NCBI GenBank assembly: GCA_043798985.1 | Contig: JAZDOE010000002.1 | Span: 22,500 to 86,499, forward strand | Source: Candidatus Falkowbacteria bacterium | GTDB taxonomy: Bacteria; Patescibacteriota; Patescibacteriia; UBA11705; JACRDX01 | DNA: 64,000 nucleotides | Direction: 5' to 3' | Part shown: in pieces, positions 33,731 to 63,060 of the stretch | Layout: each line of letters opens with the position of its first letter | How positions within the stretch are numbered: the stretch's first letter is position 1 | Notes under the pieces: model-generated | Seen by the model: only the letters and a program-made list of their open reading frames with translations | The model's database searches: none | What the model was told of the DNA's origin: nothing | Position numbers and translations under genes: made by a program

Positions 33731-33741
33731 ATCCTAATTTT

Positions 33742-34996: not shown

Positions 34997-35069
34997 ATTG
35001 CGCGCAAGCGCCCTTTTTACAACCAGCTAATTGTCCCTCAATAAATTGTTCTTTTTCCATAGATCAAGT

Positions 35070-36749: not shown

Positions 36750-36753
36750 AAAA

Positions 36754-39302: not shown

Positions 39303-40496
39303 TTACTCTTTCCTTTCCTCCAACGTCACCTTGATTATTTTCGTCTCGCCATTTCGCAAAACTTTCAATATGACGACATCATTCGGAGCATATTTAGAAA
39401 TTTCTGTTGCCAAAGTTTTTTCATTCAGTTTAACACCATTGATTTCCAAAATTATGTCATCAACTTTCAGACCGGCTTTGGCCGCCGGACTATTTGGAAC
39501 GATTGCTTGCTCACCTGCTGTTTGTCCGGCGGCAATCAATGCTCCGTAATTCACCGGCAGTTTATTCGCGTCCGCGATTTTTTGATTCAAAACAACATAG
39601 CGAACGCCCAGCCACGGTCGAACAATCCTGCCATATTTTTTCACGCTGTCCAATGCTTTTTTGGCAACATTTATCGGAATGGCAAAACCAACTGACTCGC
39701 CCGAAAGATTCACCGCAGTATTAATGCCAATCGCCTTCCCACCCAAATCCAGCAATGGCCCACCGGAATTGCCCGGGTTTATCGCGGCGTCAGTCTGAAT
39801 CGCCTCATCAATCGTTGAAAAGGTGTTAGCCGCATAATCGCTGGCAGTCACCTTGCGATTTATTCCAGAAATCACGCCCTTTGTCACTGTGTTTTTGTAT
39901 TCAGCCAAACTAAAACCAATAGCAATCGCAGTCTGGCCGATTTGAATTTTGTCAGAATTGCCAAGATCAAGTACTGCCAAATTTTTTGCTTCAATTTTAA
40001 GAATGGCAATATCATTTGCCGGATCTTTACCAAAAATTTTCGCTTTAAACTCGCGGCCGTCATTCAAACTTACCGTGTATTCAGCCGCGTCGTCAAAAAC
40101 AACGTGTTTGTTAGTTAAAATCAATCCGTCAGGCGACACAATAAAACCAGAACCATTGCCGATTGTCTGCTTGATTTTACTAAATCCATCAAGCGGACCG
40201 GTCAAATTATAATATTGGTCAAGCTCTTTTGTGATGACAATGCTGACAACTGCTGGACTGGCTTTTTTCACAACATCAATTGTGTTTGATTCTTCTTCAA
40301 CTTTTACAACTTTCGGAGAAGTTGAATCAGAGGCGGGCGCGTTTGGCGTCGCGTCTCCCAAAAATGATTTGCCCCAATTTTTTTTTTGCATTTTGGTCAA
40401 AAGAAAAAAAGAACCCATTGCGCCGCCAAACGCGCCCGCGACAAAGCTGGTAATAATTACCGCGCACAAAATTGTTTTAAATTGCCCCTTTGACAT
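39303..40496 (-). CDS. htrA: HtrA/DegP-family serine protease with PDZ domain
   Basis: GNSGGPLL, catalytic His/Asp context, C-terminal PDZ. Confidence 0.85.
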   Translation of the reverse strand: MSKGQFKTILCAVIITSFVAGAFGGAMGSFFLLTKMQKKNWGKSFLGDATPNAPASDSTSPKVVKVEEESNTIDVVKKASPAVVSIVITKELDQYYNLTGPLDGFSKIKQTIGNGSGFIVSPDGLILTNKHVVFDDAAEYTVSLNDGREFKAKIFGKDPANDIAILKIEAKNLAVLDLGNSDKIQIGQTAIAIGFSLAEYKNTVTKGVISGINRKVTASDYAANTFSTIDEAIQTDAAINPGNSGGPLLDLGGKAIGINTAVNLSGESVGFAIPINVAKKALDSVKKYGRIVRPWLGVRYVVLNQKIADANKLPVNYGALIAAGQTAGEQAIVPNSPAAKAGLKVDDIILEINGVKLNEKTLATEISKYAPNDVVILKVLRNGETKIIKVTLEERKE

Positions 40497-44800: not shown

Positions 44801-46099
44801 TTTTTTATTATATTTAAATGGAAGTTTTCTCAAAATTTGTTCAAATTCATCGGCAATTTTTCCTTGATTTTGACTGATGCGCACTAAATACTCATAATAT
44901 GCTTTCTTGCGACCTTTTCTTTTTCTTTCCCGCAAAGAAACACAACCTTCTGCTATCCAAAAACCAAAAAATGCCAACCAATCTTTCATCATTATTTTTT
45001 TCGCTAAGCATTTTTTAATTACATATTTTTTACCATAATGCTGGTACTGCCTAATGTCTATTTCCGGCAAAATAAATTCTTTTTTTGATACGCCGTTCCA
45101 TGCTCCATTCTTAGGAATAAAATGCTCACTAGGATTAAACGCCGCTGCTTTGACAAACTTTCGACGATATGGTCCGCCCTTACAGTTCGGGCAATATTGG
45201 TCAACAACCATGTTATGATTTGGAGTGACTAAAATATCTATTTTTTTGGATTTAAAATTATATAATTCTCCGTTGTAAATATATTTGTAAAACTTAATCG
45301 GCTTTTTCAATTCAATTCTATTCGTTTGATTATTTAGTGTAAAAACTTTATTTTGCTTATCTACTTCATAAAAATATTTCCACCCTGAATCAGTTAAAAC
45401 TTCGGTATCCTCTGAATAACATTCTCCCTGCAAAGTATAAAAAAAATTCACCAGCTGTCCCAATGCCGTGGCAAAATGTTTCGGCGGCTTGCTTTCCACC
45501 TTGCCGGAAATTCCGCCAAAGCCGCGCGAAATTAAGTCGTGCAAATCCCAGCCGCAACAATAGGTAGATAAAATTTGTAAATCATGAATGTGAAAATCAC
45601 CATTCACGTGCGCGTCTTTTACTTTTGGCGGATAAATTTTATTCAGCCAATAGTTCGCGCTAATAGTTGAAGAAACGTAATTATTCAAACCTTGCAACGA
45701 AAAATCCATGTTGCTATTTTCTTTGACGCGCCAATCCAGCTTTTGCAAATATCCTTCAATCAGATCATTTGGATCAATCAAATTACTCATTTCACGAATT
45801 TTCGCGTGCTGATCGCGATAAATCACGTACGCTTTGACGGTTTTACGAAGTTTATTATCAATTAAAACATCCTCAACAATATCCTGAATTTCTTCAATCG
45901 CGGGAATTGTCCTTTCGTGAAATTTTTTGTTAAGCCGCTCAACAACTTCATCGGATGCTTTTTCAGCCTGCTCTTTTGCGCCTTCTTCCGCGGCTTGCAT
46001 TGCTTTAAAAATCGCAGTCGTGATTTTATTTTGGTCAAAATCAACAATCCTGCCATCGCGCTTGCAAATCTGAATAATCTTATTGCCAGAATAAGACAT
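41876..46099 (-). CDS. nrdD: anaerobic ribonucleoside-triphosphate reductase (class III) with ATP-cone and two inteins; C-terminus altered by repeat insertion
   Basis: ATP-cone N-terminus, HIHDL motif, PYFTITP...CPIH...CPLC Zn ribbon; extein about 729 aa. Confidence 0.9.
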   Translation of the reverse strand: MSYSGNKIIQICKRDGRIVDFDQNKITTAIFKAMQAAEEGAKEQAEKASDEVVERLNKKFHERTIPAIEEIQDIVEDVLIDNKLRKTVKAYVIYRDQHAKIREMSNLIDPNDLIEGYLQKLDWRVKENSNMDFSLQGLNNYVSSTISANYWLNKIYPPKVKDAHVNGDFHIHDLQILSTYCCGWDLHDLISRGFGGISGKVESKPPKHFATALGQLVNFFYTLQGECYSEDTEVLTDSGWKYFYEVDKQNKVFTLNNQTNRIELKKPIKFYKYIYNGELYNFKSKKIDILVTPNHNMVVDQYCPNCKGGPYRRKFVKAAAFNPSEHFIPKNGAWNGVSKKEFILPEIDIRQYQHYGKKYVIKKCLAKKIMMKDWLAFFGFWIAEGCVSLRERKRKGRKKAYYEYLVRISQNQGKIADEFEQILRKLPFKYNKKVNNKKLEFYIGNKQLFLYLKQFGKADSKFIPKEIKNLAKAELDILLHWMMAGDGYIGGGNIEYYTKSKKLADDVQEIILKLGFSANIYEKHKKNFKWYKVCVSRSRHFKFRSKEQNIKKVHYYGTVYCLEVPNHTLYVRRKGRACWCGNSAGAQAVSSLDTYLAPFIRYDSLTQDQVKQQMQIFLFNMNVPTRVGFQCMSEDTEILGKNGWAQYNQIKSGDIIATFNVEGGYIEYLPVNKVFARKYSGKMYNLKNRISDQLISPEHRVVRKKFNGSEYVLEKIEDVIALKSPFIVPVGSDGNTRGNGSLNEEIVKLIAWIVAEGTIDKGERGTGRISIYQSRAVSADNYDEIVSICDNLGLKYTERMQCGLGQDCNVLRFDAFSTRKILNYFKSDKQQGIKLIPQSILQADVETSRLFLETYIKGDGHDGCKITTTSKKIADGLLQVAVNAGYGATVLTRKPDNKLSKKDRYIIRLIKHVDTYINKVTKVDYEGIIWCPNTDNETVIARRNGKIFITGNTPFTNVTFDLFPAGILAKESIIIGGQPQKETYGEFQKEMDMFNQAFIEVMTEGDRKGRVLSWPIPTYNVTKDWNWDAPIIQKIMEMTSKYGIPYFANFIFSDMKPEDARSMCCRLRLDNRELRKRGGGLFGANPLTGSIGVVTIHMSRLGYLSNSKEEFFDKLGKLMDLAKESLEVKRTVLENLTDGGLYPYSKHFLGLIKERFGGYWQNHFNTIGLNGVNESALNLLGQDITTVEGHKFARQVLDFMRERIMDYQNATNHLYNLEATPAEGASYRFAKIDKKKFPDIIVANEVACRARNAAPYYTNSTHLPVGYTDDIFTALRLQDDLQIRYTGGTVFHGFLGEKMPSPEATKELVKKIANNFRLPYFTITPTFSICPIHGYLSGEQEYCPLCDEQSGYVDQGREALKLNDPASSARFDEASACLAESRRARRAGGQVPNSNAVDNTAQAPKNG
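41929..42007. repeat. GC-rich repeat module inside nrdD 3' end (opposite orientation to prfB copy)
   Basis: exact 38-nt match with prfB copy. Confidence 0.8.
43244..44209 (-). mobile_element. intein 2 in nrdD (322 aa) with LAGLIDADG homing endonuclease motifs
   Basis: starts CMSEDTEILGKNG after extein VGFQ, ends KIFITGN before Thr; LIAWIVAEGT and FLETYIKGDGH motifs; flanking extein aligns with NrdD (GQTPFVTFGF region). Confidence 0.75.
44354..45421 (-). mobile_element. intein 1 in nrdD (356 aa) with LAGLIDADG homing endonuclease motifs
   Basis: starts CYSEDTEVLTDSG after extein TLQGE, block F VYCLEVPNHTLYV, ends ACWCGN before Ser; FFGFWIAEGC and LLHWMMAGDGYIG motifs. Confidence 0.75.
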
Positions 46100-49616: not shown

Positions 49617-50594
49617 TTAAAATCCCAAATTAAAACTATTTACAATCAATCTCAAAACGGTTGGATAATTAACGATCAAGTCTTTGCCAACATTATAATG
49701 AACGATATATACCAAATCATTCTGCGCAAAGTAGTAAGTATAACCATCAGGGCTCATGATTCCCTCAAGTTTGTTTTTGTTGCTGCTAATTTTTTCAATT
49801 TTATCCGCTGTCAACGTCGGCACCATTGCCAAATACCAATCTTGCAAATTTTGAGTCACGTCTTTTTTAACGGTAAAAACATTTATAAACTCATCATTAC
49901 CAGAGCTCAAAATCACCTCATTTTCATTAACCATGCTTGGCTCTATTATCCATTCTTCGGGATAAAAGAAAGAATATTTTGCAGAATCATTTGTATAAAC
50001 CTTAACAAAATTAGTAAATTCCAATTTTACCGGCGCAGTTCCTTGCGGATTGTATAAATTCAATACTTCCGTACCATCAATATATCCATCTTTGTCAGAG
50101 TCTTCTTTATTTTTGTTTGTGCCAAACAATGCTTCTTCTCCGTCTGTTAATCCATCTTTATCACTATCAGCGCCAGCAATATCTGCCAAAACCGTGTCAG
50201 CCAGTTTTTCCGGCTTAAATAACTCAACAACCGGTTTTTCTTCAGGTTTAACTTCTGGAGTTGGCGCAACGGTTGGCTCAACCGCTGGTCCCGCCGTTGG
50301 CCCCGCCACCGGCGGGGGCGCGGGTTGTTCAACTACTGGCAACAATGTTGGCGCAGGGGCAACAGGCTGGGTACTTAAATAAAGCAAATAAACCGAACCG
50401 CCCAGCATACCAACCAAAAGGACGGCAATCACAACATAAACCGGCTTTATTTTCCTCCCAGCCTTCGTCCCGCCGACTGGCGGGACTGCGGCGGGCAAGC
50501 TCGATATTTTTTTAACATTCCTAAAAAATTCAGGCATTACATGGATCTTGCCCTCACTGGTTATTTCGTGCGGCTTATTTTTTTCTTCAGCCAT
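49617..50594 (-). CDS. Pro-rich membrane-anchored protein with TSP3-like Ca-binding repeats
   Basis: TM helix, DSDKDGLTDGEE and DSDKDGYIDGTE motifs. Confidence 0.55.
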   Translation of the reverse strand: MAEEKNKPHEITSEGKIHVMPEFFRNVKKISSLPAAVPPVGGTKAGRKIKPVYVVIAVLLVGMLGGSVYLLYLSTQPVAPAPTLLPVVEQPAPPPVAGPTAGPAVEPTVAPTPEVKPEEKPVVELFKPEKLADTVLADIAGADSDKDGLTDGEEALFGTNKNKEDSDKDGYIDGTEVLNLYNPQGTAPVKLEFTNFVKVYTNDSAKYSFFYPEEWIIEPSMVNENEVILSSGNDEFINVFTVKKDVTQNLQDWYLAMVPTLTADKIEKISSNKNKLEGIMSPDGYTYYFAQNDLVYIVHYNVGKDLIVNYPTVLRLIVNSFNLGF

Positions 50595-50599: not shown

Positions 50600-51292
50600 T
50601 TATTCAACGCCCTGCAATGCTTTTTTCGCTTTTTCAAAATCTAATAATTTACCGGCGCCGTTTGGATTATATCCATTTTTCACTTCTTCTCCATCAGGAT
50701 ATTTATCGCCATCAGTATCCGCATTCAATGGATCTGTCTGGTAAATTTTTACTTCTTCTTTGTCAGTCAGACCATCATCATCAGAATCAGCTTTTTGCGG
50801 ATTTGTGCCATATGTAAGTTCTTCGCTATCAACCAATCCATCTGCGTCGCTATCTACAACTGTCGGTTCCGGCTCAACAACAGGAAGCACCGCTGGCACT
50901 GGAGTAGGAACTGCTTGCTTGGGCGTTTCTGTTGGAATTTGTTTCAATGTTTCAATTCCTTTGTTAATAGATTTGCCAGTGATAATCATGTCATATACAA
51001 ACCAGCCGGCCGCGCCCAAAATCGCCATAATAACAATGATTGCCAGCGCGATAAAAATTCCTTTTTTGCTTGCAACTGGCGCTGGCAATGGCGCTTTTGT
51101 CATTGCCGATGGCGCAGCCATCGGCAATGCAGCAGCCTTTGGCTGCTGCGCGGCCGGCTGCGCGCTTGAAGTCGCTCGCCCCGCCAACGGCGGGGCAAAA
51201 ATATCTTCTACGTTTGGAACATTTGCCGAAGGTCCCACGAGTTTAGCTGGCCCCGCCGCTGGTTGTTTTTGTAATTTTGGATCATCAAACAT
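50600..51292 (-). CDS. membrane-anchored protein with TSP3-like Ca-binding repeats (paralog of previous)
   Basis: DSDADGLVDSEE, DSDDDGLTDKEE, DTDGDKYPDGEE motifs. Confidence 0.55.
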   Translation of the reverse strand: MFDDPKLQKQPAAGPAKLVGPSANVPNVEDIFAPPLAGRATSSAQPAAQQPKAAALPMAAPSAMTKAPLPAPVASKKGIFIALAIIVIMAILGAAGWFVYDMIITGKSINKGIETLKQIPTETPKQAVPTPVPAVLPVVEPEPTVVDSDADGLVDSEELTYGTNPQKADSDDDGLTDKEEVKIYQTDPLNADTDGDKYPDGEEVKNGYNPNGAGKLLDFEKAKKALQGVE

Positions 51293-51425: not shown

Positions 51426-54400
51426 TTATTCACAAACGTTTGGTTTAAAATTAAATTGATAGCCAGTCAACAATGCGTCTATTTCCAGATAATAACTGAA
51501 TTTGCACGTTTGGCTCGCTGGAAAATATTGATATGAATAAATCGGCTGATACTTTTGAGTTTGCGCGCTGAACTTTTTGTTTAATGAATCATAGCATGTA
51601 TTCATGTCATAACCAATCGGACATAATCTGCAAAAACTTCCGGCCGGCGAACATTGTGAAGTTGTTTTTTCACAATAACCTTGATCCTTGCCGCACGATT
51701 CATATTTATTTGTATCAACAACTCCATTCACCTTTACAGCGTTTTCGCCAAGCTGCGCAACATCAGCAAAATGGTTCAATGGATCTTCTGGCACAGAATT
51801 CTGCAAATCCGCGCTAAATTCTTCTTGCCACGATGGCCACACACTATAAGTGACATTTTTCACGTATGAGCCAGCATCCAAATGCGGATAATCCTCATAA
51901 ATCTTAAAATACGAACCAGAATTTTTTGGATCATTTAACAAATATTTTACAAATGCCGCGTCATTCACACGTTTGGTATCGCGTTGAATCATTTGCTTTT
52001 TCAAAACTTCAACATTAGTATTAAATTTCCAATGACTTAATAATTGGTTAACAATTGACAGTGTGTTTGCGTTTGCTTTGTCAGTATAGCTAAAAATATA
52101 AACATTATTAAAAATCTTTTTGTCATCAGAAACATTGGCTCCGGAAACATAAACGGTCCTGCCATCTTTTATCGCGTGATAACCATCAATGTCTGCTGAT
52201 TGCGGCCCGCCCGGATTTGGCACGTATTGTTTGTACCAAAGTTCCAGCGGCCAAGAGCCCGGATTTTCAGCCACGCGCAATGAAATCGCGTCAGAAACAT
52301 AATCATAATCTGTCAGCGGCGCGCCATATGGACCTGTTTCGCGCACAAAAAACACTTCGTAAAAAATCTCTGGCGGCTGCGATGCATTCGCGCTGCCTAG
52401 CACATCTTTAATCAATGGCAAATCATCTATTAAACTTCCTCTATCCTTTCCGTCTCTGCAATAAAATGTCTTCAAATTAAATTTATCAACGTTCCATATC
52501 CATGGTTTGTCACAAAATATTACATCAATATCTGCCGCGGCTTCAAACATTTTGCCAGCTTCTGTCCCGCCAAACAATGTGTCTGCTGTGACATTCAAAA
52601 TCGCGAAAAGCAAATTATTTAATCCTTCTTTATCTTTTGCAAAAGCTATTTCAACATTTTCGCTGGGAGTTTTTGAAGATGCTTTAATTCCCACTATATC
52701 AACTGAATTGTCTGCCAATTTCCACGTCACTGTCCAATCATACTGGCCAACAACTTCGTGAATATAACCTTTTTCTGACTGCGCTATCGCAACAAATTCT
52801 TGCGCTTCTGCTGGTTTTGTGAAAAGTTTTGTGGCTGGCTCAATGGCCAAAGTGGAAATTTTGCACGCGCCACCAACGGTAAAACCAAAAATCAAACCGG
52901 TCTTCATTGGATTTCCGCAAGAATCAATAACTCCATTTTCTACATTCACTAAATATGTCTTGTTACTGCTTAACAACCCAATCGGCTCAACTAGCACCAT
53001 TTTTGTGTTTCCATTGCCAGCATCATCCAAACTTGTAATTACCATGTTGACCGGCGGCATTTGCACTCCAATTATGCCGATTGATATGTGCTTTTTCAAA
53101 CTCTCCAAATTTAAAGGCTGATTAAATTCCAATAAAATGCTTACATTTTGGCACACGTTCGTTTCATTCGCGGCAGGCAAGGTTTTTACAAACGCCACTG
53201 CGCCATAGCCTTTACAACCTGTTGGGTCATCACCGTTGTCACCGTTTGGCCCATCAATCGGACCATTTTCATAATTTAGTGTTGTATAAACTAATTCTGC
53301 CGCATTTATATCTTTTTCCTGCAAAATCTTGGCGATTGCTTTCATGTCCCATGGATACGCCAAAATATTTGTTTTATCAACAAAAACTTTTTCAGGTAAA
53401 TCGCCAATCACGGTTGCCAGCTGATAAAAATTTCCGGGCGCGCTGCCAACGATTGCTGGCTCGCATTTCTCGTCTTCGCCCGGCTCAACTTTTCCATTTC
53501 CACAAACCGCGCCCCACGAATAATCCGCGCCTTTTTTCAAACAATTTAGCGCGCACCAAGCAGAAGAAACTTCGCATTCTTCGCCAGCGTCAATTTTCGC
53601 GTTTCCACAGCAGTTCAGCTCGCCGGCTTTTGAACATTTTAATGTTCCTTGCCACAGACAGTTTTTCGCGCAACCAGCATCCGTTGATTCACATTCCTCG
53701 CCCTGCTCTAATTTTCCATTTCCGCAAATAGCCGGCTCGCTACCAAAAACATATTGCGCGCCCTCAAACAAACATTGGCTATTACAACCGTCTTTTGCCA
53801 CAACATTTCCATCATCGCAATCTTCGCCATATTCAACTTTTGCGTTGCCGCAAACAAATCCGGCAATTGCAGAGCCTTCATTTAAACACTTTGAACTGCA
53901 ACCATCAGCGCCTTTCGCGTTTTTATCGTCGCAATCTTCTGCTTTATCTTTTGCGCCATTGCCGCAGCAATTCGCATCGCCAACCTGCAAACAAGCAACC
54001 ATACCCTCGTTCAAACATTGCGCGCCGCATCCATCGCCTTCCAATTTATTGCTGTCATCGCACTCTTCGCCATATTCAATTTTTCCATTTCCGCAAACCG
54101 CGGCTTTGTCTTTTGGCACACTGCCGCTTAGCTGGCATTTTGCGTTGCAATATTTTGGCAAATTCAAATTGCGCTGATCATTTGAAATGGTCGCGACTGA
54201 CGGCTTTGTTGAATCCCAGCTCCATGAATAGAGGTTTGGCGCTAAAATTTCGCCAATGCCATCGCAACCCAATGGATCGCCAATTGGATTTGCTTGATAT
54301 AGAATTTTTTGATCTTTATCATAACTTATCATTTCTTGCGGAACAACATCAACTTTTTGCGGCTTGCAAATAGCAGAATCATTTTTTATTTTAAAAATCC

Positions 54401-57400
54401 ACGAATAAGAATCTAATTTAGCATCATCATTTTTATCGTAGTTTAATTCTGTAAGCGCTTTGTTAGCCGCGCTTTTTGTGTTACCGTCAATTATTACGCG
54501 ATAATATGTGTTTGACACAAAAAGCGCGCCCGGTTGCAACATAAAGTTCACGGTCTTTGTTTCACTATTATAACTTGCGTTGCCAGCAATCTGGCCAGCC
54601 GCGATAAATGTTGTGCACGCCTGCGACAAACACGGCAAAACAATCACATTGTTTTGCCAATCGTTTTCAACCAGCATGCTGGTGTTAAATTTCGCGTACA
54701 CTAACGAGTTCGGACAAGCTGTAAAGCACGCAGGATAAGAATCAACAACCTGCGGCGCAGCGAATTTTATCTGCAAATCAGCCGTATCGCCATATTCGCC
54801 GGGTAGTTTTGGATCTAACGACGTGAACACCGAATATATTTCAATGTCTTTATCCAAATTAGTTTCTGCCAATGCCTTCGCGACACTAAAATTTTTCGCG
54901 GCATCCCAATCCAACTCTGCTCGCGGTCCTGCGTAAGCATCATCAGAAAATCCCCATTTCCACCCGCTTTCAGCTGGACAAGTAATTATATTGCAATTTT
55001 TTGCCACGCATTGCGCAGAATATTTTGTTTCTTTGCCAATGTCATCTATCAACGCGTTGCTTGGACTAACCAAAATGTGGTCAACACTGCAACTGGTGTC
55101 ACCTGTTGTGAACTCCCAAAAATACGGCGCCATCATTGCCAAACCGCTTTTTGCTTTTATGCCCTTTTCACCTGACAACAATGTCACTCTATATTTTAAA
55201 TTTGTTTGCAATTTTGTTTTTAATACTAATTGCGTTCTGTCATCGCCAAAATATTTTACAACGCGAAATTCAAATGGCGGATTGTCAAAGTCTTTAAACG
55301 CCAAATTATGACAGTTCGCGCCTGCTTTTGAACAATTGCTCAAATCGCAATCATCTTTTTGCGAATTGCATGCTGAAACAACAACATTGTTAACAAAACT
55401 GGTTGTATCCATCAACGTGTTAAAAACAGCGCTGGTTTCAGCATTTGGACATGCGTTCTTCAACCCGATAAATGGCGACGGGCTTTCCGGATAATCTTTT
55501 GAACAAACTGGAATTTCCAGAACTTCCGGATAAATCGGCAACAAACCAGTGCTAAATATCCACGCATATTCGCAAGATTGCAAACCAGCGGCCTTGCATT
55601 CGTCAGTTGGCAAACACAATCCATTACAGCAGGTTTCGCCAGCAGAACAACTATTAGCAGTACACAAACCAACCGAGAAATTTACCTCATTGCTTTTCAA
55701 CCCAGCAGAATTTAAAACATAAACAGGTCCGCTTTTTGCTGTTTGCGGGACAATAATATTTGAAATTTTTCCATTTGTCCAAGTTAATCCGTCCTTAACT
55801 TCTGCGGCGCTATAAAAAATAACCCTCCCTGTGTTTCCCTGTGATGCGCCAAATTCTTCACCGCCAATTTCAATTTTCGTGCCAGCTGGTCCGTTCGCTG
55901 GTTTAACATAACAAATTCCAGGTGTCACTGCTTTGCTGTTCGCCTCAAACATCACTTGATTACTTTTTACCTCACCCTTAACAATTTGAATTGTGTATTT
56001 GCCAATATTGGCAGTTGGAATTTTTGACGGAACTTTTACCACAACCTGCGCATTATTCCACGCGCCCTGACTGCAACCAAATTCTGCCACGTACATTTTA
56101 GTAGCGTCATCTTCTTTTACAAATTGCACCTGCCCAATGCTGTCTCCAAAATTTGAACCGGCAATCGTCACATACTGACCCTTGCCGCCGTTATTGGGAC
56201 TTATGCCAGTAATTATTGGCAATTCAGCAGCTTCCAAAACCACAAAAGCAACGGCATTGCTCAAAACATTGTTATTTGAAACTTTCACATTAACTTTCCC
56301 GGACTGCAAATTGGGAACTTTTATGCCTGATATTTTTTTATCAACCCAAGTTCCGCTGATGTCAGCGCTGAATTCGCCAAAGTAAACATTATCGCCATCG
56401 CCCCGCGAATCGCCAAAACCACTGCCCTCGGCAATTACCAAATCCAAGTATTTGCCAGTTGCCTGACCGAGCGCGTTCGCAACAGAACACAAACCCGGCC
56501 ATTTGACATTCGCGTCATAAATAAAGTCGCCCTTCCAACCGCGATCATCATCAGTCGCGTCAGTATATGCTTTTTTCGTAGTAAGTTTTATCGCACCGGT
56601 TGAAACAGTAGCTGGAACAACCACAACAACCTGATTATTTGTCCATGATTTTACAGCGCAACCTAACTCTGCTTTTATCCACGCGCCTTTGGCATCTTTA
56701 AACTCAACTTTGCTCGCTGGTCCAAAATCGTCAAAATATTTTCCGGAAATCGTGACAAAATTTCCTGCGGCGCCTTTTGACGGCGACACGCTGGAAATAA
56801 TCGGCACATCAACGCAAACGTTTTTTGTTTTATCGCACGTGCCTGTTGCGCATTGCGAATCATTATCGCACTTACCGCCATCGCACAAACCGCACTCTGG
56901 TTTTCCGCAAATTATTTCGTCTTTGGCATTAAAACAACTTTCGTCTTTAATATAAAAACCAATTTCCGCGGCATTGCCAAAATTCGCACCCAAATCAAAC
57001 GCTCTGGCGCTGACAAAATGTTTGCCTAAAGCGGCGCCGGTCAAATCAAAATCAAACGCAGCGTCAAATTCTTTTAGCGCCGCGATTTTTGGTTGGTCAG
57101 CGCCAATTTTTTTCTGGTCAAAGAAAAAATCAACGGACGAAACTCCAAAATTATCCGTTGCTTTTGCCTGCATCAATAAAATGCTATTTGCTTTTACGCT
57201 TTGTCCGCTTACAGGATAGCTAACAAAAACCACCGGCAAAGAACCATCAAAATTTTCTCCCGTTGAAAATTTTGCTGAACACGCGAACACTGCGCTGCAC
57301 GTAATCTTAGAATCAGTAATACTGCGCAATCCTTGTTTCACAACAATTTCGTATTGAGTATTTTTATTAAAACAAAACTGCGTTTCATAGTCCGCGCATT

Positions 57401-58046
57401 TTTGAGCTGGCGTAAAAATAATTTTCGCGCCATCAACTTCAATGTCACCATCAACTTCTTTCCCGTCTAGCGCCTGCCTCACGATAAAATTTCCGGATAC
57501 GGAATTTTCTTTTACTTCTTTATTGAATAAAACTCGGACTTTAACATTATATATTTCGGATTTTCCGTTTGGCATGAAAGATTTAGCGTAAAAATTCGCT
57601 CCGCCAGCGCCTCCGCCATCTCCGCCTACGCCACCGTCTCCATTGCCACTTGGCAACCCTCCGACAATCTCAACGCCAGTCGCCTCGCCCAACCGACTGA
57701 TTACAAACGTTGTTATCGCGTAAGCGCTTAATACAATAATCAAACCTATTACAGCTGACGTTAATGCTTTGCGCGCTTTGTCGTGCTTTGGATCGCTACC
57801 GCCGGCTATCATCCACAAAAATCCTCCGTAAAGAATCAAAGCAAGAAAAACGATTCCCAAAAAGCTCAAAATAATTTTTATGATTTTCGCAACAATCAAT
57901 CTGGGATCTTCCTGCGACAATCCAGTGCTTTCCAAAGGCTGTAAACCAACATCAACCTGCGCAAAAGCAATCTTCGCGACAAAAATACCCAGCGCCATTA
58001 TAATGATGCTGCCGACTAACAACCATTTTTTGCGTCGCAAAGACAT
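51426..58046 (-). CDS. giant surface protein (2206 aa): N-terminal double-TM pilin-like module, Gly-rich linker, Cys-rich EGF/Myxococcus-type repeats (CGNGKxExGEECDD...C)
   Basis: single ORF; six tandem CGNG...GEECD...C repeats seen directly; N-terminus shared with 58101-59942 protein. Confidence 0.8.
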   Translation of the reverse strand: MSLRRKKWLLVGSIIIMALGIFVAKIAFAQVDVGLQPLESTGLSQEDPRLIVAKIIKIILSFLGIVFLALILYGGFLWMIAGGSDPKHDKARKALTSAVIGLIIVLSAYAITTFVISRLGEATGVEIVGGLPSGNGDGGVGGDGGGAGGANFYAKSFMPNGKSEIYNVKVRVLFNKEVKENSVSGNFIVRQALDGKEVDGDIEVDGAKIIFTPAQKCADYETQFCFNKNTQYEIVVKQGLRSITDSKITCSAVFACSAKFSTGENFDGSLPVVFVSYPVSGQSVKANSILLMQAKATDNFGVSSVDFFFDQKKIGADQPKIAALKEFDAAFDFDLTGAALGKHFVSARAFDLGANFGNAAEIGFYIKDESCFNAKDEIICGKPECGLCDGGKCDNDSQCATGTCDKTKNVCVDVPIISSVSPSKGAAGNFVTISGKYFDDFGPASKVEFKDAKGAWIKAELGCAVKSWTNNQVVVVVPATVSTGAIKLTTKKAYTDATDDDRGWKGDFIYDANVKWPGLCSVANALGQATGKYLDLVIAEGSGFGDSRGDGDNVYFGEFSADISGTWVDKKISGIKVPNLQSGKVNVKVSNNNVLSNAVAFVVLEAAELPIITGISPNNGGKGQYVTIAGSNFGDSIGQVQFVKEDDATKMYVAEFGCSQGAWNNAQVVVKVPSKIPTANIGKYTIQIVKGEVKSNQVMFEANSKAVTPGICYVKPANGPAGTKIEIGGEEFGASQGNTGRVIFYSAAEVKDGLTWTNGKISNIIVPQTAKSGPVYVLNSAGLKSNEVNFSVGLCTANSCSAGETCCNGLCLPTDECKAAGLQSCEYAWIFSTGLLPIYPEVLEIPVCSKDYPESPSPFIGLKNACPNAETSAVFNTLMDTTSFVNNVVVSACNSQKDDCDLSNCSKAGANCHNLAFKDFDNPPFEFRVVKYFGDDRTQLVLKTKLQTNLKYRVTLLSGEKGIKAKSGLAMMAPYFWEFTTGDTSCSVDHILVSPSNALIDDIGKETKYSAQCVAKNCNIITCPAESGWKWGFSDDAYAGPRAELDWDAAKNFSVAKALAETNLDKDIEIYSVFTSLDPKLPGEYGDTADLQIKFAAPQVVDSYPACFTACPNSLVYAKFNTSMLVENDWQNNVIVLPCLSQACTTFIAAGQIAGNASYNSETKTVNFMLQPGALFVSNTYYRVIIDGNTKSAANKALTELNYDKNDDAKLDSYSWIFKIKNDSAICKPQKVDVVPQEMISYDKDQKILYQANPIGDPLGCDGIGEILAPNLYSWSWDSTKPSVATISNDQRNLNLPKYCNAKCQLSGSVPKDKAAVCGNGKIEYGEECDDSNKLEGDGCGAQCLNEGMVACLQVGDANCCGNGAKDKAEDCDDKNAKGADGCSSKCLNEGSAIAGFVCGNAKVEYGEDCDDGNVVAKDGCNSQCLFEGAQYVFGSEPAICGNGKLEQGEECESTDAGCAKNCLWQGTLKCSKAGELNCCGNAKIDAGEECEVSSAWCALNCLKKGADYSWGAVCGNGKVEPGEDEKCEPAIVGSAPGNFYQLATVIGDLPEKVFVDKTNILAYPWDMKAIAKILQEKDINAAELVYTTLNYENGPIDGPNGDNGDDPTGCKGYGAVAFVKTLPAANETNVCQNVSILLEFNQPLNLESLKKHISIGIIGVQMPPVNMVITSLDDAGNGNTKMVLVEPIGLLSSNKTYLVNVENGVIDSCGNPMKTGLIFGFTVGGACKISTLAIEPATKLFTKPAEAQEFVAIAQSEKGYIHEVVGQYDWTVTWKLADNSVDIVGIKASSKTPSENVEIAFAKDKEGLNNLLFAILNVTADTLFGGTEAGKMFEAAADIDVIFCDKPWIWNVDKFNLKTFYCRDGKDRGSLIDDLPLIKDVLGSANASQPPEIFYEVFFVRETGPYGAPLTDYDYVSDAISLRVAENPGSWPLELWYKQYVPNPGGPQSADIDGYHAIKDGRTVYVSGANVSDDKKIFNNVYIFSYTDKANANTLSIVNQLLSHWKFNTNVEVLKKQMIQRDTKRVNDAAFVKYLLNDPKNSGSYFKIYEDYPHLDAGSYVKNVTYSVWPSWQEEFSADLQNSVPEDPLNHFADVAQLGENAVKVNGVVDTNKYESCGKDQGYCEKTTSQCSPAGSFCRLCPIGYDMNTCYDSLNKKFSAQTQKYQPIYSYQYFPASQTCKFSYYLEIDALLTGYQFNFKPNVCE

Positions 58047-58059
58047 ATCTTACTATAAT

Positions 58060-58098
58060 TTCAAATATCAAATGACAAATGACAAATGACAAATTACA
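58060..58098. repeat. tandem heptamer repeat (ATGACAA x3, ATTACAA x2)
   Basis: seen directly between the two paralogous surface-protein genes. Confidence 0.7.
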
Positions 58099-58100
58099 AA

Positions 58101-59942
58101 TTACAAACCGCAACCAGCAACTAACTCTGGTTTGCAAATACCGGTTTTTGGATCAGGACAGCATGATGCCGTAGTGTTCAAGCAGTTCGGACCTTTACAC
58201 GGCCGATAACAATTTTGCAATAAATCGCGCACTCCACTTGTGACGATAGAATAATATTTAAATGCCGGCGTTTTTTCCGGAGCTTTATCAAAGTCTCCGT
58301 GCTGAATGTTAATCCTCGCGCTTGAAAGAACCTTATCTTGCTTTTCTCTATCTTCAATCTTCATTGAATACCACTTTTCCCACTTGTCACCTTTTAATAT
58401 TACATTGCCAAACAAACTGTCAGCGCTCATCGGTGAATCAAAGAAAATTGAAACAATGGCAGTCAAATCAACATTGCCCGCGTTAAGATTTGGAAAAACC
58501 TCGTCTATTATCGGCGGAAAGACATCAATTTCTCCGCTTGTGCTGAACAACCAATTATAATTATCAGCGGGCGGTCCTTCGCTCACGCCATTATGATTGC
58601 CATCCAAAGAATTTCCAGCGCCATCAACAATGCCCTTTGGTGGAAAAAGCGCCATTGGCGGCTCACTGGACAATTGGCCTGCCTTTATTGTCACGCCAAT
58701 TGTCGCGTCAGCTGGCAGACAATAAATTTTTTCGCCGCACGAATTTACTTTCACGCCCTCGCATTCTTTGTCCGTGATAAATTCAACGGTGCGAAATCCA
58801 TTTAACCCAACTTTAAAATTTCCAGAAATATATCCATTGTTGGTTTTCAAATAAATCTCATTATCAGCATCAGCGCCAGTGCCTCCGGCTGTCTGATGGA
58901 ACGGCGGAATAATCGCCTCGCTAAAATTCATCTGAATAATATGGTTGCGCGCCACTTTGTCCGGCCCAAGCGGGATAACGGATTTAACGTATGGCGGCGT
59001 CTGGTCAATGGTAGTTCCTGTTGTGAACATCCACGCGTAATCAGGCGATTTGCCCTCAAAAATTGTTTTTTTACTGCCATCTCTCAAAATGTTTTGCGTC
59101 AAATAAACAACATACGAAACATCTTCCGTAGAAGAACCAAGATATTTTTTCGGATCTTCCGGATTATATGGATTAAAAACAAAAATCTTGTGATCTTCGC
59201 TCACTGTCATAATACCGTCTTTTATCAATTTCTCATCGTCCTGCGGCCACTGATTTTTTTCCTGATCTTTAAGCAAATAAATCTTTATATTGTTGGAATT
59301 TAACCGACCGCAAATTGTTTTTTCCTCGCACTTTAAATTCGCGTCAGTTGTTAAAACAGAATTCGGATCAAATGCCGCGCCAAATCGCACCATAATATTC
59401 GTGTTCCGCGCAACGTCAGTCGCGTTGCGTCCGGGCCAATGATCAGCAACCACTTTTCCAAGCGCGCCGCCGCCCAATCCGCCGCCGCCAACATCCACCA
59501 CTGAACCTTCGATTGAAGAAACAATAGGAATGCCGTGCGTAATAGCCAGCAAACGACTCAAAATAAAACTCACGATTGAATACGAAAAGAAAATAATCAG
59601 TAAACCAATTACTCCGTTTGTCAGCCATTTTTTCGCCTTGCCAACTTTAGTCGGATCACCGCCAGATGTCATCCACAAATAGCCCGCGTACAAAACAATA
59701 CAAAGCGCGATCAGCCCGATAAAACCCAACGCAATGCGAATAAGTTTCGCGATAATCACACGAATGTCTCCGGTTGGCAAACCTGTTTGCTCCTGAATCG
59801 GCTGAATATCTGTTGTCATGTCAATTTGCGCGGCAGCAATGAAAGGTATTAAAAAAACAGCTGCCGCGCCAAAAACAAACAACGCTGAGACAGCTGTCTT
59901 TTTATTAAAAAACCTTTTGATTGTTTTTTGTTTGGGAAGCAT
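58101..59942 (-). CDS. surface protein (613 aa) with the same N-terminal double-TM pilin-like module and Gly-rich linker
   Basis: alignment of residues about 60-140 with the 2206-aa protein N-terminus (IIAKLIRIALGFIGL...LYAGYLWM..GGDP..K..KAKK.LT..VIGL). Confidence 0.7.
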   Translation of the reverse strand: MLPKQKTIKRFFNKKTAVSALFVFGAAAVFLIPFIAAAQIDMTTDIQPIQEQTGLPTGDIRVIIAKLIRIALGFIGLIALCIVLYAGYLWMTSGGDPTKVGKAKKWLTNGVIGLLIIFFSYSIVSFILSRLLAITHGIPIVSSIEGSVVDVGGGGLGGGALGKVVADHWPGRNATDVARNTNIMVRFGAAFDPNSVLTTDANLKCEEKTICGRLNSNNIKIYLLKDQEKNQWPQDDEKLIKDGIMTVSEDHKIFVFNPYNPEDPKKYLGSSTEDVSYVVYLTQNILRDGSKKTIFEGKSPDYAWMFTTGTTIDQTPPYVKSVIPLGPDKVARNHIIQMNFSEAIIPPFHQTAGGTGADADNEIYLKTNNGYISGNFKVGLNGFRTVEFITDKECEGVKVNSCGEKIYCLPADATIGVTIKAGQLSSEPPMALFPPKGIVDGAGNSLDGNHNGVSEGPPADNYNWLFSTSGEIDVFPPIIDEVFPNLNAGNVDLTAIVSIFFDSPMSADSLFGNVILKGDKWEKWYSMKIEDREKQDKVLSSARINIQHGDFDKAPEKTPAFKYYSIVTSGVRDLLQNCYRPCKGPNCLNTTASCCPDPKTGICKPELVAGCGL

Positions 59943-59986: not shown

Positions 59987-60436
59987 CTACAAGCTTTCTT
60001 TTATAATACCGCCGGCAACTTTGCCGTCAATTTGCCCGGGATATTTTAGCATTACTGTTTTCATGATAGCGCCGAAATTTTTGCGATCTTTTTCAGGCAT
60101 TTTAGCAATTGTCTCTACAATCTTTGCTTTCAATTCTTCCGCGCTGATTTGGCGCGGCAAATATTTTTCAATGATTGTTAATTCTGCTTTTTCCTTATCC
60201 GCCAAATCAGCGCGGTTATTTTGTTCAAAAATCTCAATTGATTCTTTGCGCTTTTTTGATTCGGTTTTAAAAACGGCCACAACTTCTTCGTCGCTCAATT
60301 GTTCCAGCGGTTTGATCATTTCAACCGCTTTGTTTTTCAGAGATGTTTTTAACATTCGCAAAACGCCAAGTTTCATTTCATCTTTAGCAATCATCGCGGC
60401 TTTCAAATCAATGTCTATTTGTTGTATTAGAGACAT
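59987..60436 (-). CDS. yqeY: GatB/YqeY domain protein
   Basis: YqeY pattern; conserved rpsU-yqeY gene pair. Confidence 0.8.
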   Translation of the reverse strand: MSLIQQIDIDLKAAMIAKDEMKLGVLRMLKTSLKNKAVEMIKPLEQLSDEEVVAVFKTESKKRKESIEIFEQNNRADLADKEKAELTIIEKYLPRQISAEELKAKIVETIAKMPEKDRKNFGAIMKTVMLKYPGQIDGKVAGGIIKESL

Positions 60437-60440
60437 AAAA

Positions 60441-60689
60441 TTATCTGCGTCTCTTTTTCTTTTTATCGTCCTCTTTCAAAAGACCCATTTTTTGCAGATG
60501 TTCTCTTTGCCCGGTAATCTTCATGCGATAAAGCGCGCTGGCGCGCCGCGCGTTGCGATTTTCACCCTTGCGCAAAAAGCGCACTTTTTTAAACTGCAAC
60601 AAAACGCCGCTCTGCATTATTCTTTTATTAAACCTGCGCAATAAAGATTCAAAGGTTTCGCTCCTTTTTTTCTTAACTTCCACTGGCAT
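60441..60689 (-). CDS. rpsU: 30S ribosomal protein S21
   Basis: S21-like pattern SLLRRFNKR..., basic tail. Confidence 0.75.
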   Translation of the reverse strand: MPVEVKKKRSETFESLLRRFNKRIMQSGVLLQFKKVRFLRKGENRNARRASALYRMKITGQREHLQKMGLLKEDDKKKKRRR

Positions 60690-60751
60690 ATTTTCTATCC
60701 CCTTTCTATATTTAAATTATAGCGAAAGTATACAAGAATCGCAACTATAAA

Positions 60752-62122
60752 TCAATATCTGGATTTTGAGCGCCGCGTATTTATCTCATGCAACTTTTTT
60801 CTAATGTCTATTTTCACTTTATCAAAATTAACAACTTCCTGCGCTCCGCTTTCAGCGTCGCGCAAAATAATCGTGTTTTCCATCATTTCTTTATGCGCCA
60901 AAATCAGAATTAATTTTGCTTCAACTTTTTTCGCGTGTTCAAGCTGGCTCTTTAAACTATTTCGCGTAAAATTCGCTTTGACCGAATAACCTTCTTTTCG
61001 CAAATCTTCAAAAAACACCATTGCTTTGCGTTTTGCTGTTTCTGCCAATTGCGCCAGATAAACATCTGTTCCCGGACGTTCTGGCGCCACAATTTTATTT
61101 TCGCGTAGCAAACGGATTACTTTTTCCGCGACCAAACTGATGCCAACAGCTGGAATAGACTCGCCGCCAAGCATTTGCACCAAATTGTCATGCCGCGATC
61201 CTTTTGCAAGCAACAAACTTTTTTTTGCGCCAGTCGCGCCAACGGCGGGACCAGCTTCATTGAATCTCATTTCAAAAATCGTGCGATTTTGATAATCAAA
61301 ATCTCTGATCAGCCAAGGGTTCAGTTGATACGGCACTTTCAAATCATCAAGCGCTTCAACAACTTTAAAATAGTGATCCTTGCATTCTTGGCACAGCCAA
61401 TCAACAACCTGCGGCGCGTCTTCTCTGATTTTTTGGCAACGCACGTTTTCGCATTCCAAAACATCAAAAATTCTGCGACCCAAATTATTTTTGCATTTCA
61501 CGCACAAGCCGGCTTTTTTCGGCCGATAATACGCTTGTAGCGCTTTTTCATAATTTTCAATACAATTCAGACAACCGCAACTGTTCAAAATAACGGTTGG
61601 TTCAGCGTTAATCCGCTTGAACAAATTGTAAAAAATAAAAATCAATTCAGCTTCCGTTGACCCTGCTTTATTGCCAAAAACTTCCAACGTAAATTCGTTT
61701 GCCTGACGCAAATTTCCAATATACTCATCCTCAACTCCGCGAAAAATCTTGCCAAAAGAAAAAACTTTCAAAATTGAATTCTGGTTTCCCAAATTATGTT
61801 CAATAAACGCGCGCGCCAATGCCGGAATGGTGTCTGGCTTCAAAATGAATTTTTCATTTTTTTGCAAAAAACTGGCGATTCCATTTGGCACCAATTTGTT
61901 GCCGCGCCCTAAAGTGTGTCCAAAAAGTTCAGGCCGCTCCATCATTGGCGTGTCAATATATTGAAACGTGTAGTCTTGCGCGATATCAAAAATATTGCGC
62001 AACAAGCCCATCCAAAATTTGTCTTCTGTTGGTAGCGCGTCCTTTGTCCCCTGAAACAATGCGGGCGTTTTAATTTGTTTAACGTGTTTTATTTCCAGTT
62101 CACTTTTTTTACGTCGAGGCAT
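60752..62122 (-). CDS. hisS: histidine--tRNA ligase (class II) with Cys-rich insertion
   Basis: class II motifs, KIFRGVE..Y.GNLRQ, GSRHDNL (GGRYD-like), C-terminal anticodon-binding domain. Confidence 0.75.
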   Translation of the reverse strand: MPRRKKSELEIKHVKQIKTPALFQGTKDALPTEDKFWMGLLRNIFDIAQDYTFQYIDTPMMERPELFGHTLGRGNKLVPNGIASFLQKNEKFILKPDTIPALARAFIEHNLGNQNSILKVFSFGKIFRGVEDEYIGNLRQANEFTLEVFGNKAGSTEAELIFIFYNLFKRINAEPTVILNSCGCLNCIENYEKALQAYYRPKKAGLCVKCKNNLGRRIFDVLECENVRCQKIREDAPQVVDWLCQECKDHYFKVVEALDDLKVPYQLNPWLIRDFDYQNRTIFEMRFNEAGPAVGATGAKKSLLLAKGSRHDNLVQMLGGESIPAVGISLVAEKVIRLLRENKIVAPERPGTDVYLAQLAETAKRKAMVFFEDLRKEGYSVKANFTRNSLKSQLEHAKKVEAKLILILAHKEMMENTIILRDAESGAQEVVNFDKVKIDIRKKLHEINTRRSKSRY

Positions 62123-62124
62123 AG

Positions 62125-62217
62125 ATTTGAAATTTCAAATGACAAATATCAAATAACAAATTTTGGATTTTGAACTTTGACATTGAATTGACATTTGACC
62201 TTTGGTATTTGACATTC
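62125..62217 (+). repeat. second copy of the TTGACAT direct-repeat element (see 6121-6232)
   Basis: shared TTTGACATTGAATTGACATTTGA and AAATGACAAATATCAAAT. Confidence 0.6.
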
Positions 62218-62814
62218 TTAAAAATTGTAATCAATTGTCCCAAATGTTGCCACTCTGTTGAACGGCCATCCGCGCACCCACGCTTTGCCGATTATAAGTT
62301 TTTGGTCAACCGGGCCGAACGAGCGCGAATCCAGCGAAAACTCACGGTTATCGCCCAAAACATAATATTCGTTTTCAGCCAACTGCCAACCATAATCGCC
62401 GTTTGTCCTGACGTCCGTTGGCAAATATTGCGTTTCATCCAATAAATATTTTTTCTCATCTTTATAAATATAAACATGCCCGTCTTTCACTTCAATTTTT
62501 TCGCCGGGCAAACCAACAATTCTTTTTATAAAATATTGTGACTGGTCCTTTGGATATTTGAAAACAACAATGTCGCCTCTCTGCGGATCATCAATGCGAT
62601 AACCTATTTCATTAATAATAAGGTACTCGTGGTCAAAAAAATTCGGTTCCATTGACGCGCCCTTAACGTAAAATGGCTGTATTAAAAAATAACGGACAGG
62701 AATAATTATTGCCAGCGAAATGCAGACAACTTTTACCATGTCCCAAACATTTATCAATATTTTTTTACGAACGCTGACGCTATTGTTTTGCGGATTTCCT
62801 GTATTCAATAACAT
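62218..62814 (-). CDS. lepB: signal peptidase I
   Basis: GASMEPNF and GDNREFSLDSR motifs; start moved to M43 of track ORF because the upstream extension reads through the GC-rich repeat. Confidence 0.85.
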   Translation of the reverse strand: MLLNTGNPQNNSVSVRKKILINVWDMVKVVCISLAIIIPVRYFLIQPFYVKGASMEPNFFDHEYLIINEIGYRIDDPQRGDIVVFKYPKDQSQYFIKRIVGLPGEKIEVKDGHVYIYKDEKKYLLDETQYLPTDVRTNGDYGWQLAENEYYVLGDNREFSLDSRSFGPVDQKLIIGKAWVRGWPFNRVATFGTIDYNF

Positions 62815-63060
62815 AAAAAAGTAAATTCTAAATAAGAAATCCGAAATACTAAACCCTCCATAGGCGGGCAGGCAAGCGCGAAGCACCCCGGCCTCGCCTC
62901 GGCTCGGCCGAGGGCGGGCGAAATCACAATGTTTCAACATTGGGACATTCTGATTTCTAATTTGCCTGCCTGCCGGTAGGCAGGTTTCGGATTTCGACTC
63001 GCCTCGCTGAAGCTATGGCGAAGCGGGTATTCGGATTTCGAATTTTTATTATCATAACAA
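62815..63060. repeat. composite repeat: AT-rich palindromic element (AAATCCGAAAT, AATGTTTCAACATTGG, TTTCGGATTTCG) carrying GC-rich modules related to the prfB/nrdD inserts and the GCCTGCCTGCCGGTAGGCAGG palindrome
   Basis: module-by-module comparison. Confidence 0.7.

Follow-up and report, generated by a model that had tools for sequence, protein, structure and literature searches.

We report here on two adjacent genes in a 64,000-nucleotide stretch of a Candidatus Falkowbacteria genome (assembly GCA_043798985.1, contig JAZDOE010000002.1, positions 22,500 to 86,499; hereafter the window, from whose first letter coordinates are counted). The N-terminal ~125-135 residues of each encoded protein are a complete small pilin, of the kind that Patescibacteria also encode as free-standing ~130-aa proteins, and a large ectodomain follows in both. 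The first gene (58101..59942) specifies a protein of 613 aa, referred to as MED, and the second (51426..58046) a protein of 2206 aa, referred to as GIANT; both genes and all features described within them are on the minus strand. Our preferred reading, for which we consider the odds about even, is that the two are bimodular pilins of the VirB2 class that occupy sparse or terminal positions in a pilin polymer and expose ectodomains with an adhesive or structural role. Much of bacterial diversity belongs to Patescibacteria, which are thought to live in attachment to other cells. A scan that took one genome for each species found a relative encoded in at least 580 of these genomes. Since hundreds of related ultra-small bacteria keep it in their core genome, the pilin-headed Ig-domain pair is a strong candidate for the means by which such cells make or tip a surface structure for attachment, and it provides concrete candidates for work on their surface.

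Two neighbouring genes share an N-terminal pilin-like module

Both open reading frames (ORFs) were found exactly where an initial annotation, made from the sequence alone, had placed them. They are 54 nt apart, and exact look-ups identified their products as MFH0814604.1 ('hypothetical protein V1902_00710', Ca. Falkowbacteria; cluster look-up) for MED and as MFH0814603.1 ('Ig-like domain-containing protein', from a Candidatus Falkowbacteria metagenome-assembled genome (MAG)) for GIANT. One ortholog, 90% identical, carries the database name 'TrbC/VirB2 family protein'. The spacer (58047..58100, minus strand) contains three tandem copies of the heptamer ATTTGTC, which overlap a weak promoter-like sequence (TTGTCA-17-GATATT, 58092..58064) that is not evidence of function, and no terminator-like site was seen in this spacer on the minus strand.

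The N-terminal module that the two proteins had been said to share was recovered by BLASTP as their only significant similarity, with 45% identity over 114 aa (residues 22-131 against 31-144, E 1e-24). This similarity is far beyond chance, and no further one was detected between the two bodies below E 0.01. The conserved motif quoted in the initial annotation corresponds to the MED sequence at about residues 63-131. Hydropathy analysis also bore out the proposed succession of an initial signal or transmembrane (TM) segment and two helices: the first 130 residues of each protein contain three hydrophobic segments, namely a signal peptide and two helices, and no convincing hydrophobic segment was found beyond residue 130 in either. 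The long helices of both modules are joined by a short basic loop (GGDPTKVGKAKK and GGSDPKHDKARK) with the motif GGDPxKxxKAKK. When all six-frame ORFs of the window were searched with a hidden Markov model built from the two module sequences, no third copy was found.

Sequence and hydropathy delimit a putative signal peptide at residues 1-38 of MED (59829..59942; basic n-region, hydrophobic core and AAA|Q site) and at residues 1-29 of GIANT (57960..58046; basic n-region and AFA|Q site). The A-x-A/Q position is kept in the family consensus, and signal-peptide cleavage would probably occur at AAA|Q and AFA|Q. The MED hairpin spans residues 58-135 (59538..59771; PF18895 match at residues 62-127) and was modelled by AlphaFold2, using the module with its alignment, as a helix (60-92), a four-residue GGDP turn (93-96) and a second helix (97-135), with a predicted local distance difference test score (pLDDT) of about 85-93, preceded by a helix for the signal peptide; the family-conserved residues of the hairpin are G87, G95, A103, G113, L114, I116, I123 and F126. 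In GIANT the hairpin occupies residues 47-123 (57678..57908; PF18895 match at residues 54-115). The Gly-rich linker that had been anticipated between module and body lies at residues 136-161 of MED (59460..59537; pLDDT below 50 at 136-154 and 157-161) and at residues 124-152 of GIANT (57591..57677).

The module corresponds to a complete PF18895 pilin

Pfam searches assigned the module to PF18895, the T4SS_pilin family (T4SS, type IV secretion system). The whole proteins scored 28.8 (GIANT) and 31.4 bits (MED), and the modules alone 33.7 and 34.9 bits, all above the gathering cutoff of 26.6 bits. TrbC/VirB2 (PF04956) remained below its cutoff of 27.9 bits, with 18.1 bits for whole MED and 23.3-23.7 bits for its module alone, and the Pfam profile search gave no PF04956 match for GIANT; an NCBIfam match of MED to a 'pilin-like conjugal transfer protein' of Mycoplasma integrative and conjugative elements was likewise below threshold. 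The kind of profile check that the initial annotation had suggested for the first 150 residues was positive for PF18895 and fell short for PF04956 and for type IV pilin models, which gave no match. Among aligned relatives of the module, all 88 match PF18895 and 35 of the 88 match TrbC/VirB2 at E<0.01 (best 1.9e-7), while relatives consisting of concatenated hairpins score 51-55 bits on TrbC/VirB2, exceeding the 27.9 cutoff.

The first 135 residues of GIANT retrieved ~106 free-standing relatives of 102-234 aa (mostly ~130) with 33-68% identity (mostly 40-68%); nearly all belong to PF18895, and several from Patescibacteria are named 'pilin'. In a joint alignment the modules of the window are colinear with whole free pilins, from the signal peptide to ~10 residues past helix 2, and therefore the module is an entire small pilin and the remainder of each protein a C-terminal graft. 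This colinearity and the PF18895 scores uphold the earlier guess of a VirB2/TrbC-type pilin, and no unrelated well-known family was found to fit the module. Unlike small free-standing pilins (~100-160 aa), the proteins of the window comprise 613 and 2206 aa.

Long fusions are common among the relatives. An exhaustive search of representative proteins with the GIANT module yielded 24,520 at E<=1e-3 and 7,644 at E<=1e-10. Of the 150 best representatives, 87 are 400 aa and over (up to 4806 aa), 37 are 200-400 aa and mostly have two tandem hairpins, and 26 are under 200 aa; sampled mid-size relatives also carry Big_5, TIG and Big_7 domains. A word-indexed homolog search with the module gave short proteins only, which reflects retrieval bias, as the top relatives in the exhaustive search are mostly long fusions. 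Many two-hairpin proteins of 220-280 aa also occur in PF18895.

Three other assignments were considered and set aside. Membership of PF04956 is not claimed because the score is below threshold and the hhalign alignment described further below is statistically weak, and the module is filed under PF18895. Type IV pilin identity was rejected: no type IV pilin or N_methyl Pfam match was found, and the proteins have a signal peptidase I-type AxA signal peptide and a two-helix hairpin. Neither motifs nor profile matches of sortase/LPXTG pilins were present, and this identity was rejected as well.

A large Patescibacteria lineage keeps the pair in its core genome

More than 150 full-length homologs of MED have the same PF13205 plus PF18895 architecture. 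We fetched 85 loci, each comprising the pair with 10-kb flanks, the end of which often clips the GIANT ORF. The pair was seen in about 85 of the 85, and a fusion of ~540-900 aa is almost always directly followed by a second hairpin-headed ORF of 1550 to >3500 aa, and the gene order lepB-hisS-yqeY-[MED]-[GIANT]-TSP3-TSP3-ybeY-dagK-ftsA-ftsZ recurs wherever the contig allows (about 85 loci). The upstream block of the window (59987..62940, minus strand; Pfam assignments) consists of lepB (62218-62940), hisS (60752-62122) and yqeY (59987-60436), in the same order as in most of the 85 loci. Downstream, a single-pass membrane protein with bacterial TSP3 (Ca-binding) repeats (50600..51292, minus strand; TSP3_bac E 1.3e-16) comes after GIANT in every locus that reaches far enough, and is followed by a second single-pass membrane protein with weak TSP3-like motifs (49617..50594, minus strand; TSP3_bac only E 0.025), which is syntenic in relatives.

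Conservation extends through the proteins themselves. GIANT is conserved across nearly its whole length in 70 loci (BLASTP), and an 87-sequence alignment of the MED family contains 22 invariant columns, 18 of them in the ectodomain and 4 of these Cys. All seven named cassette-bearing assemblies belong to the GTDB class ABY1 (Table S1 of PMC12102498). On the strength of the recurrent gene order, the full-length conservation and the spread in ABY1, we conclude that the pair belongs to the core genome of a large Patescibacteria lineage and is neither part of a mobile element nor a strain-specific adhesin locus. The same data bear on the idea that a mis-called ORF or a mis-assembly joined a small pilin gene to a surface-protein gene, for which only the unusual architecture speaks. 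Fused architecture and gene order are repeated in about 85 independent assemblies with 30-90% identity, and most of the best module representatives are at least 400 aa long (87/150); conservation across these assemblies refutes such an artefact, the probability of which is next to nil, and we reject it.

In most loci lepB lies three genes upstream of the pair, and one or two genes upstream where yqeY is absent or inverted. Conjugative propilins are processed by LepB-type peptidases in known systems; the presence of lepB near the pair, from which hisS and yqeY separate it, may reflect no more than housekeeping synteny.

The fused hairpin is conserved in the manner of free pilins

The consensus of the fused hairpins (..lY.Gf.wMTagG...k...Ak..l.na.IGL.Ii.s..aI..fv) is identical in free pilins. 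Across genomes, the helices of the fused hairpins have a mean pairwise identity of 0.52, with 13-15 columns per helix conserved at 60% or more, and free pilin helices reach 0.45-0.63 in the same comparison, whereas for the lone TM segment of the adjacent TSP3 protein, compared over the same genomes, the identity is 0.22 and 0 of 23 columns are conserved. Conservation of the hairpin is thus far above that of this anchor, which argues for sequence-specific constraint; to judge from these comparisons, the hairpin is not a generic anchor and is held to a pilin-grade constraint. Furthermore, a genuine free pilin gene encoding 125-136 aa is located inside the cassette in three loci, between or after the fusions (L041, 11725-12123; L071, 7065-7439; L084, 11857-12264, in coordinates of the respective locus), and these free pilins are distinct from their fused neighbours (38-53% identity). 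By eye, those of L041 and L071 are almost identical to each other across the hairpin, and identity reaches up to 95% within the sub-lineage group.

These observations have to be set against an alternative to which we grant a reasonable, though less than even, chance. It holds that the hairpin was co-opted to anchor the proteins in the membrane or to let them oligomerise laterally, and that the pair and its TSP3 partners form a constitutive S-layer-like layer or fibrils independent of a T4SS or pilus. A hairpin far more constrained than the adjacent generic TM anchor, the retained free-pilin motif and the insertion of free pilin genes in the cassette at three loci all argue against such co-option, and if oligomerisation relied on pilin-type contacts, the boundary to the pilin-subunit reading would blur. 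Other evidence favours this alternative: the pair is single-copy, both of its proteins are conserved over their full length, and it sits inside the core block from lepB to ftsZ in about 85 loci.

Similarity is higher between the two hairpins of a single genome (0.60) than between those of different genomes (0.48; p 3e-18), and the MED and GIANT hairpins do not fall into separate clades. Identical codons are in excess within a genome (0.48 versus 0.34 across genomes); in L022, L065 and L038, 80-84% of codons are identical at residues shared by the locus's own two hairpins (cross-genome mean 34%). This codon pattern indicates recent gene conversion between the adjacent fusion genes in some lineages, which explains at least part of the same-genome similarity. 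Since the codon data point to gene conversion, co-adaptation of the paired hairpins was dropped as evidence for a physical interaction.

The ectodomains are strings of Ig-like and Cys-rich modules

The ectodomain of MED (58104..59459) comprises tandem Ig-like domains, with Big_5 matches in three stretches (E 1e-12), and a C-terminal Cys-rich tail. In the AlphaFold2 model of the whole protein (pLDDT 82, predicted template modelling score 0.72) the linker at residues 136-161 is disordered and the body is beta-rich, with pLDDT mostly above 85. Foldseek matched the modelled body to strings of Ig-like domains, including the BIg domains of LdtMt2 (5e-7), titin and the IL-1 receptor, and no catalytic fold was seen in this search.

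The GIANT body carries four Big_5 domains, four TIG domains, Big_7 and Cys-rich repeats, and the Ig-like Pfam scores are above cutoff (Big_5 85.6 and 49.1 bits, TIG 70.3, Big_7 29.3). The best-scoring TIG/IPT domain lies at residues 610-696 (55959..56219; E 1.4e-19), among four TIG stretches within residues ~420-800, and the best of the four Big_5 stretches at residues 1617-1723 (52878..53198; E 4.5e-24). Between them, a regular-expression search of the translation located six Cys-rich acidic repeats in residues 1316-1530 (53457..54101), the CGN[GA]...EEC...C units of which span residues 1318-1528. Their assignment to the Myxococcus type, already made in the initial annotation, is supported by TIGR02232 (myxo_disulf_rpt) with 69.4 bits versus a cutoff of 20.8, while DUF4215 stayed below its cutoff (20.7 versus 27 bits). 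The C-terminal region at residues ~1750-2100 (51747..52799) is covered by BLASTP high-scoring segment pairs in 46-53 of 70 orthologous giants and gave no Pfam or PDB sequence match. The Big_5, TIG and Big_7 domains and the Cys-rich repeats, together with the tandem Ig-like folds that Foldseek recovered, bear out the earlier description of the bodies as adhesin-like. Cys residues are concentrated after the hairpin, with 12 in the MED ectodomain, 81 in GIANT and a single one elsewhere overall, a distribution that fits an extracytoplasmic location of the bodies.

The position of the disordered Gly-rich linker directly after helix 2 could suggest that the hairpin serves only for export and as a temporary tether, and that the bodies are cut in the linker and then secreted or wall-bound. 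A gene for an HtrA-like serine protease with a PDZ domain at 39303-40496 of the window would be compatible with this scenario, but is circumstantial only. No conserved cleavage motif was identified, and a plain signal peptide would do, as in the 3383-aa protein described at the end of this text, which would leave the constrained hairpin unexplained. We therefore regard release of the ectodomains as improbable.

A possible role as modular subunits of a pilus

If MED and GIANT act as pilin subunits, the Sec pathway would insert them, and signal peptidase I would cut following AAA or AFA. VirB2-type pilins have a known topology with the N-terminus outside, the loop inside and the C-terminus outside. 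Based on this and on the positive-inside rule, the hairpin would place its N-terminus outside, its basic loop in the cytoplasm and its C-terminus outside, such that helix 2 would be a signal anchor and the Cys-rich body would lie outside the cell on a flexible tether. Because the fused hairpins keep the conserved residues of free pilins, they may engage in the same contacts, be it with further pilin hairpins, with T4SS components that handle pilins and are encoded elsewhere in the genome, or with both. A body of 50-220 kDa would be too bulky for every subunit of a helical pilin lattice; the fusions would therefore occur sparsely or at an end (as tip or priming subunits), comparable to the modular minor subunits of type IV pili, with the Ig-like stalks and Cys-rich modules possibly serving as spacers and adhesins towards a host cell or surface. 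A function in an attachment apparatus is plausible. We are more doubtful of the full proposal, namely that modular pilins of the VirB2 class are seen here for the first time, as giant subunits that bear adhesins, cap or decorate a pilus of the T4SS type and make up an ABY1 organelle for attachment to hosts or surfaces, with their genes fixed beside the cell-division genes in the core genome; this appears rather unlikely at present.

VirB4 is listed for six of the seven cassette-bearing ABY1 assemblies (Table S1 of PMC12102498), and GCA_000990355.1, the assembly of locus L080, has an adjacent TrsD-VirB4 pair (tables of PMC12102498). T4SS machinery would thus usually be available in trans, which speaks against a layer or fibrils formed independently of a T4SS. 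The cassette-bearing MAG listed without VirB4 speaks for them, though it is a 619-kb scaffold-level assembly.

A number of observations weigh against a role as pilus subunits. No VirB3, VirB4, VirB6 or TrsD gene or other T4SS part was found within the 64-kb window, in a search that covered ORFs of at least 110 aa judged to be the likely gene at their position and left out overlapping antisense ORFs. Nor was T4SS machinery found in the 10 kb on either side of the pair in five relatives with annotation (L001-L005), and the flanks of the pair are housekeeping genes in most loci examined. The nearest free-standing pilins have no VirB4 within 10 kb; they form arrays of the type NTP_transferase-SBP_bac_1-[pilin x6-10]-YebC-RuvC, with 6-10 PF18895 genes each (L086, 8713-13058; L087, 8981-12207; L088, 9076-13482). 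As these pilins are also away from VirB4, the T4SS link rests on family-level homology. At the level of sequence and fold, hhalign aligned the module in register with VirB2 of the Ti plasmid, from helix 1 with its W-M motif across the loop to helix 2, at a probability of only 15.6% (the VirB2 sequence used was confirmed at 99.2% by tblastn), and against a profile of three sequences the probability was only 3.3%. Foldseek of the module model against the PDB returned no pilin, with generic helical hairpins only (best E 0.42), and when PDB sequences were searched with a profile of the module alignment, 0 matches were obtained. PF18895 also includes polypeptides of 7-8 concatenated hairpins that lack internal signal peptides (P0240, 606 aa; P0260, 820 aa), which fit poorly with the idea that subunits are extracted singly into a filament; some members of the family may be membrane-embedded bundles or pre-linked protofilaments. 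GIANT is conserved along its whole length, unlike many adhesins, which diversify, and the housekeeping and cell-division block fits a constitutive envelope component equally well. No PF18895 protein is known from experiment to polymerise.

Part of this evidence counts in favour of co-option of the hairpin as an anchor in an S-layer-like structure. T4SS genes were not found near the pair in the window or in the five relatives, the poly-hairpin proteins suggest that hairpins are able to work as membrane-embedded bundles, and S-layer and surface-stalk proteins typically contain Big_5 and TIG domains.

Relation to known pilins and adhesins

VirB2-like pilins (PF04956/PF18895) are widespread in Patescibacteria, often in arrays (Wang et al. 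2023, PMC10633639; Quinonero-Coronel et al. 2025, PMC12102498), and in Southlakia epibionticum they are encoded inside an essential T4SS cluster; in the one system tested, the pilins themselves proved essential along with the T4SS (PMC10633639). The proteins of the window resemble these Patescibacteria pilins in their PF18895 membership (with weak PF04956 similarity), in the order of signal peptide, helix, basic loop and helix, in conserved residues and in phylum, and the pair shares with the pilin arrays the tandem arrangement of divergent paralogs. They differ in that the described pilins are small and free-standing, often near virB4 and in arrays of 2-11 genes, whereas here each hairpin bears an ectodomain of 480 or 2080 aa and the locus is away from T4SS genes. 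The published accounts treat Patescibacteria pilins as small proteins and do not mention fusions to large ectodomains (PMC10633639, PMC12102498). What is already known is the module family and its occurrence in Patescibacteria, and databases tag some of the proteins as TrbC/VirB2 or as pilin/Big-like; what is new with respect to those accounts is that the architecture is bimodular, that the two genes form an obligate pair with a fixed place in the core genome of ABY1, and that the fused hairpins are under pilin-grade constraint.

The canonical pilins VirB2, TrbC and TraA (PF04956) likewise have a leader peptide and two hydrophobic helices around a short basic loop, and VirB2 has a W-M motif at the end of helix 1 that is in register by hhalign (at weak probability). 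In the structures of F and T pili the hairpin has its two ends directed outwards, which would leave a C-terminal graft exposed. The window proteins nevertheless fall below the PF04956 threshold, are 5-20 times longer and retrieved no structural match, and the outer membrane, VirB5 and cyclisation context of canonical conjugative systems are all lacking.

The closest parallel in design is offered by modular type IV pilins, such as PilB and PilC of Streptococcus sanguinis, in which a pilin module is joined to a C-terminal adhesive module; these are minor subunits the pilin module of which enters the filament (PMC8179133, PMC9934059). The proteins of the window similarly consist of a pilin module with a C-terminally grafted module, the border of which is marked by the free-pilin alignment and the disordered linker of the AlphaFold2 model. 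Modular type IV pilins belong to an unrelated class: their signal peptide is of class III, they have only one N-terminal helix, and type IV pilus machinery assembles them. The likeness is an analogy in design and not homology.

PrgB-type surface adhesins of Gram-positive T4SSs and the tip adhesin VirB5 have in common with the pair a proposed contact between a T4SS-bearing cell and its target, and differ in showing no sequence relationship and in being held by an LPXTG wall anchor or forming a soluble tip pentamer. PrgB-like adhesins were not detected in Patescibacteria, and a survey of 3,035 genomes of the group detected no adhesins (PMC12102498). Ig-rich S-layer proteins and giant adhesins (Big_5/SbsA-type, TIG, SiiE-like) also have long strings of Big_5, TIG and Big_7 domains, Cys-rich and Ca-associated partners and an extracellular location. 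They are anchored by SLH domains, by retention in type I secretion or by a single TM, and we know of none that carries a VirB2-type hairpin.

If MED and GIANT are adhesin-bearing pilus subunits, they would provide the adhesins that went undetected when Patescibacteria T4SSs were surveyed in the literature. Should the hairpin enter a filament, the modular principle of type IV pilins would extend to the unrelated class of conjugative pilins; should it not, a pilin fold would have been recruited as the sequence-constrained anchor of a core envelope structure. Either outcome would inform anew on the cell surface of the candidate phyla radiation.

Other features of the window

A further surface-protein locus proposed in the initial annotation stood in part. 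The ORF for a 3383-aa protein is present (18012-28163, minus strand) and has a plain signal peptide, one CBM_4_9 match and no pilin hairpin. Its supposed TSP3-repeat partner, a 258-aa membrane protein encoded upstream (28209-28985, minus strand), has D-rich TSP3-like motifs by eye only and gave no Pfam TSP3 match at E<=1. Elsewhere, an intein that contains LAGLIDADG homing-endonuclease domains interrupts the anaerobic ribonucleotide reductase NrdD (41876-46099, minus strand; 1407 aa).

On the plus strand, 11243-15622 includes a full-length class II aminoacyl-tRNA synthetase gene (503 aa) and, ~2.5 kb downstream of it, an ORF of 136 aa that matches only the C-terminal ~100 residues of this family, with two radical-SAM/SPASM genes and a DUF5680 gene in between; an insertion that duplicated the 3' end of the synthetase gene would fit this pattern. 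The region 30000-36800 (minus strand) is low in GC (0.35 at 30-32 kb) and encodes a Bro-N protein, Nmad3 (nucleotide-modification associated), an NYN nuclease, a CYTH protein and a radical-SAM protein, and it looks like a phage- or defence-related islet. Finally, GC peaks at 0.50 in 16001-18000, compared with 0.40-0.44 around it; the peak covers a 411-aa ORF, which matches only the C-terminal domain of RNA polymerase alpha, and an unassigned 246-aa ORF.

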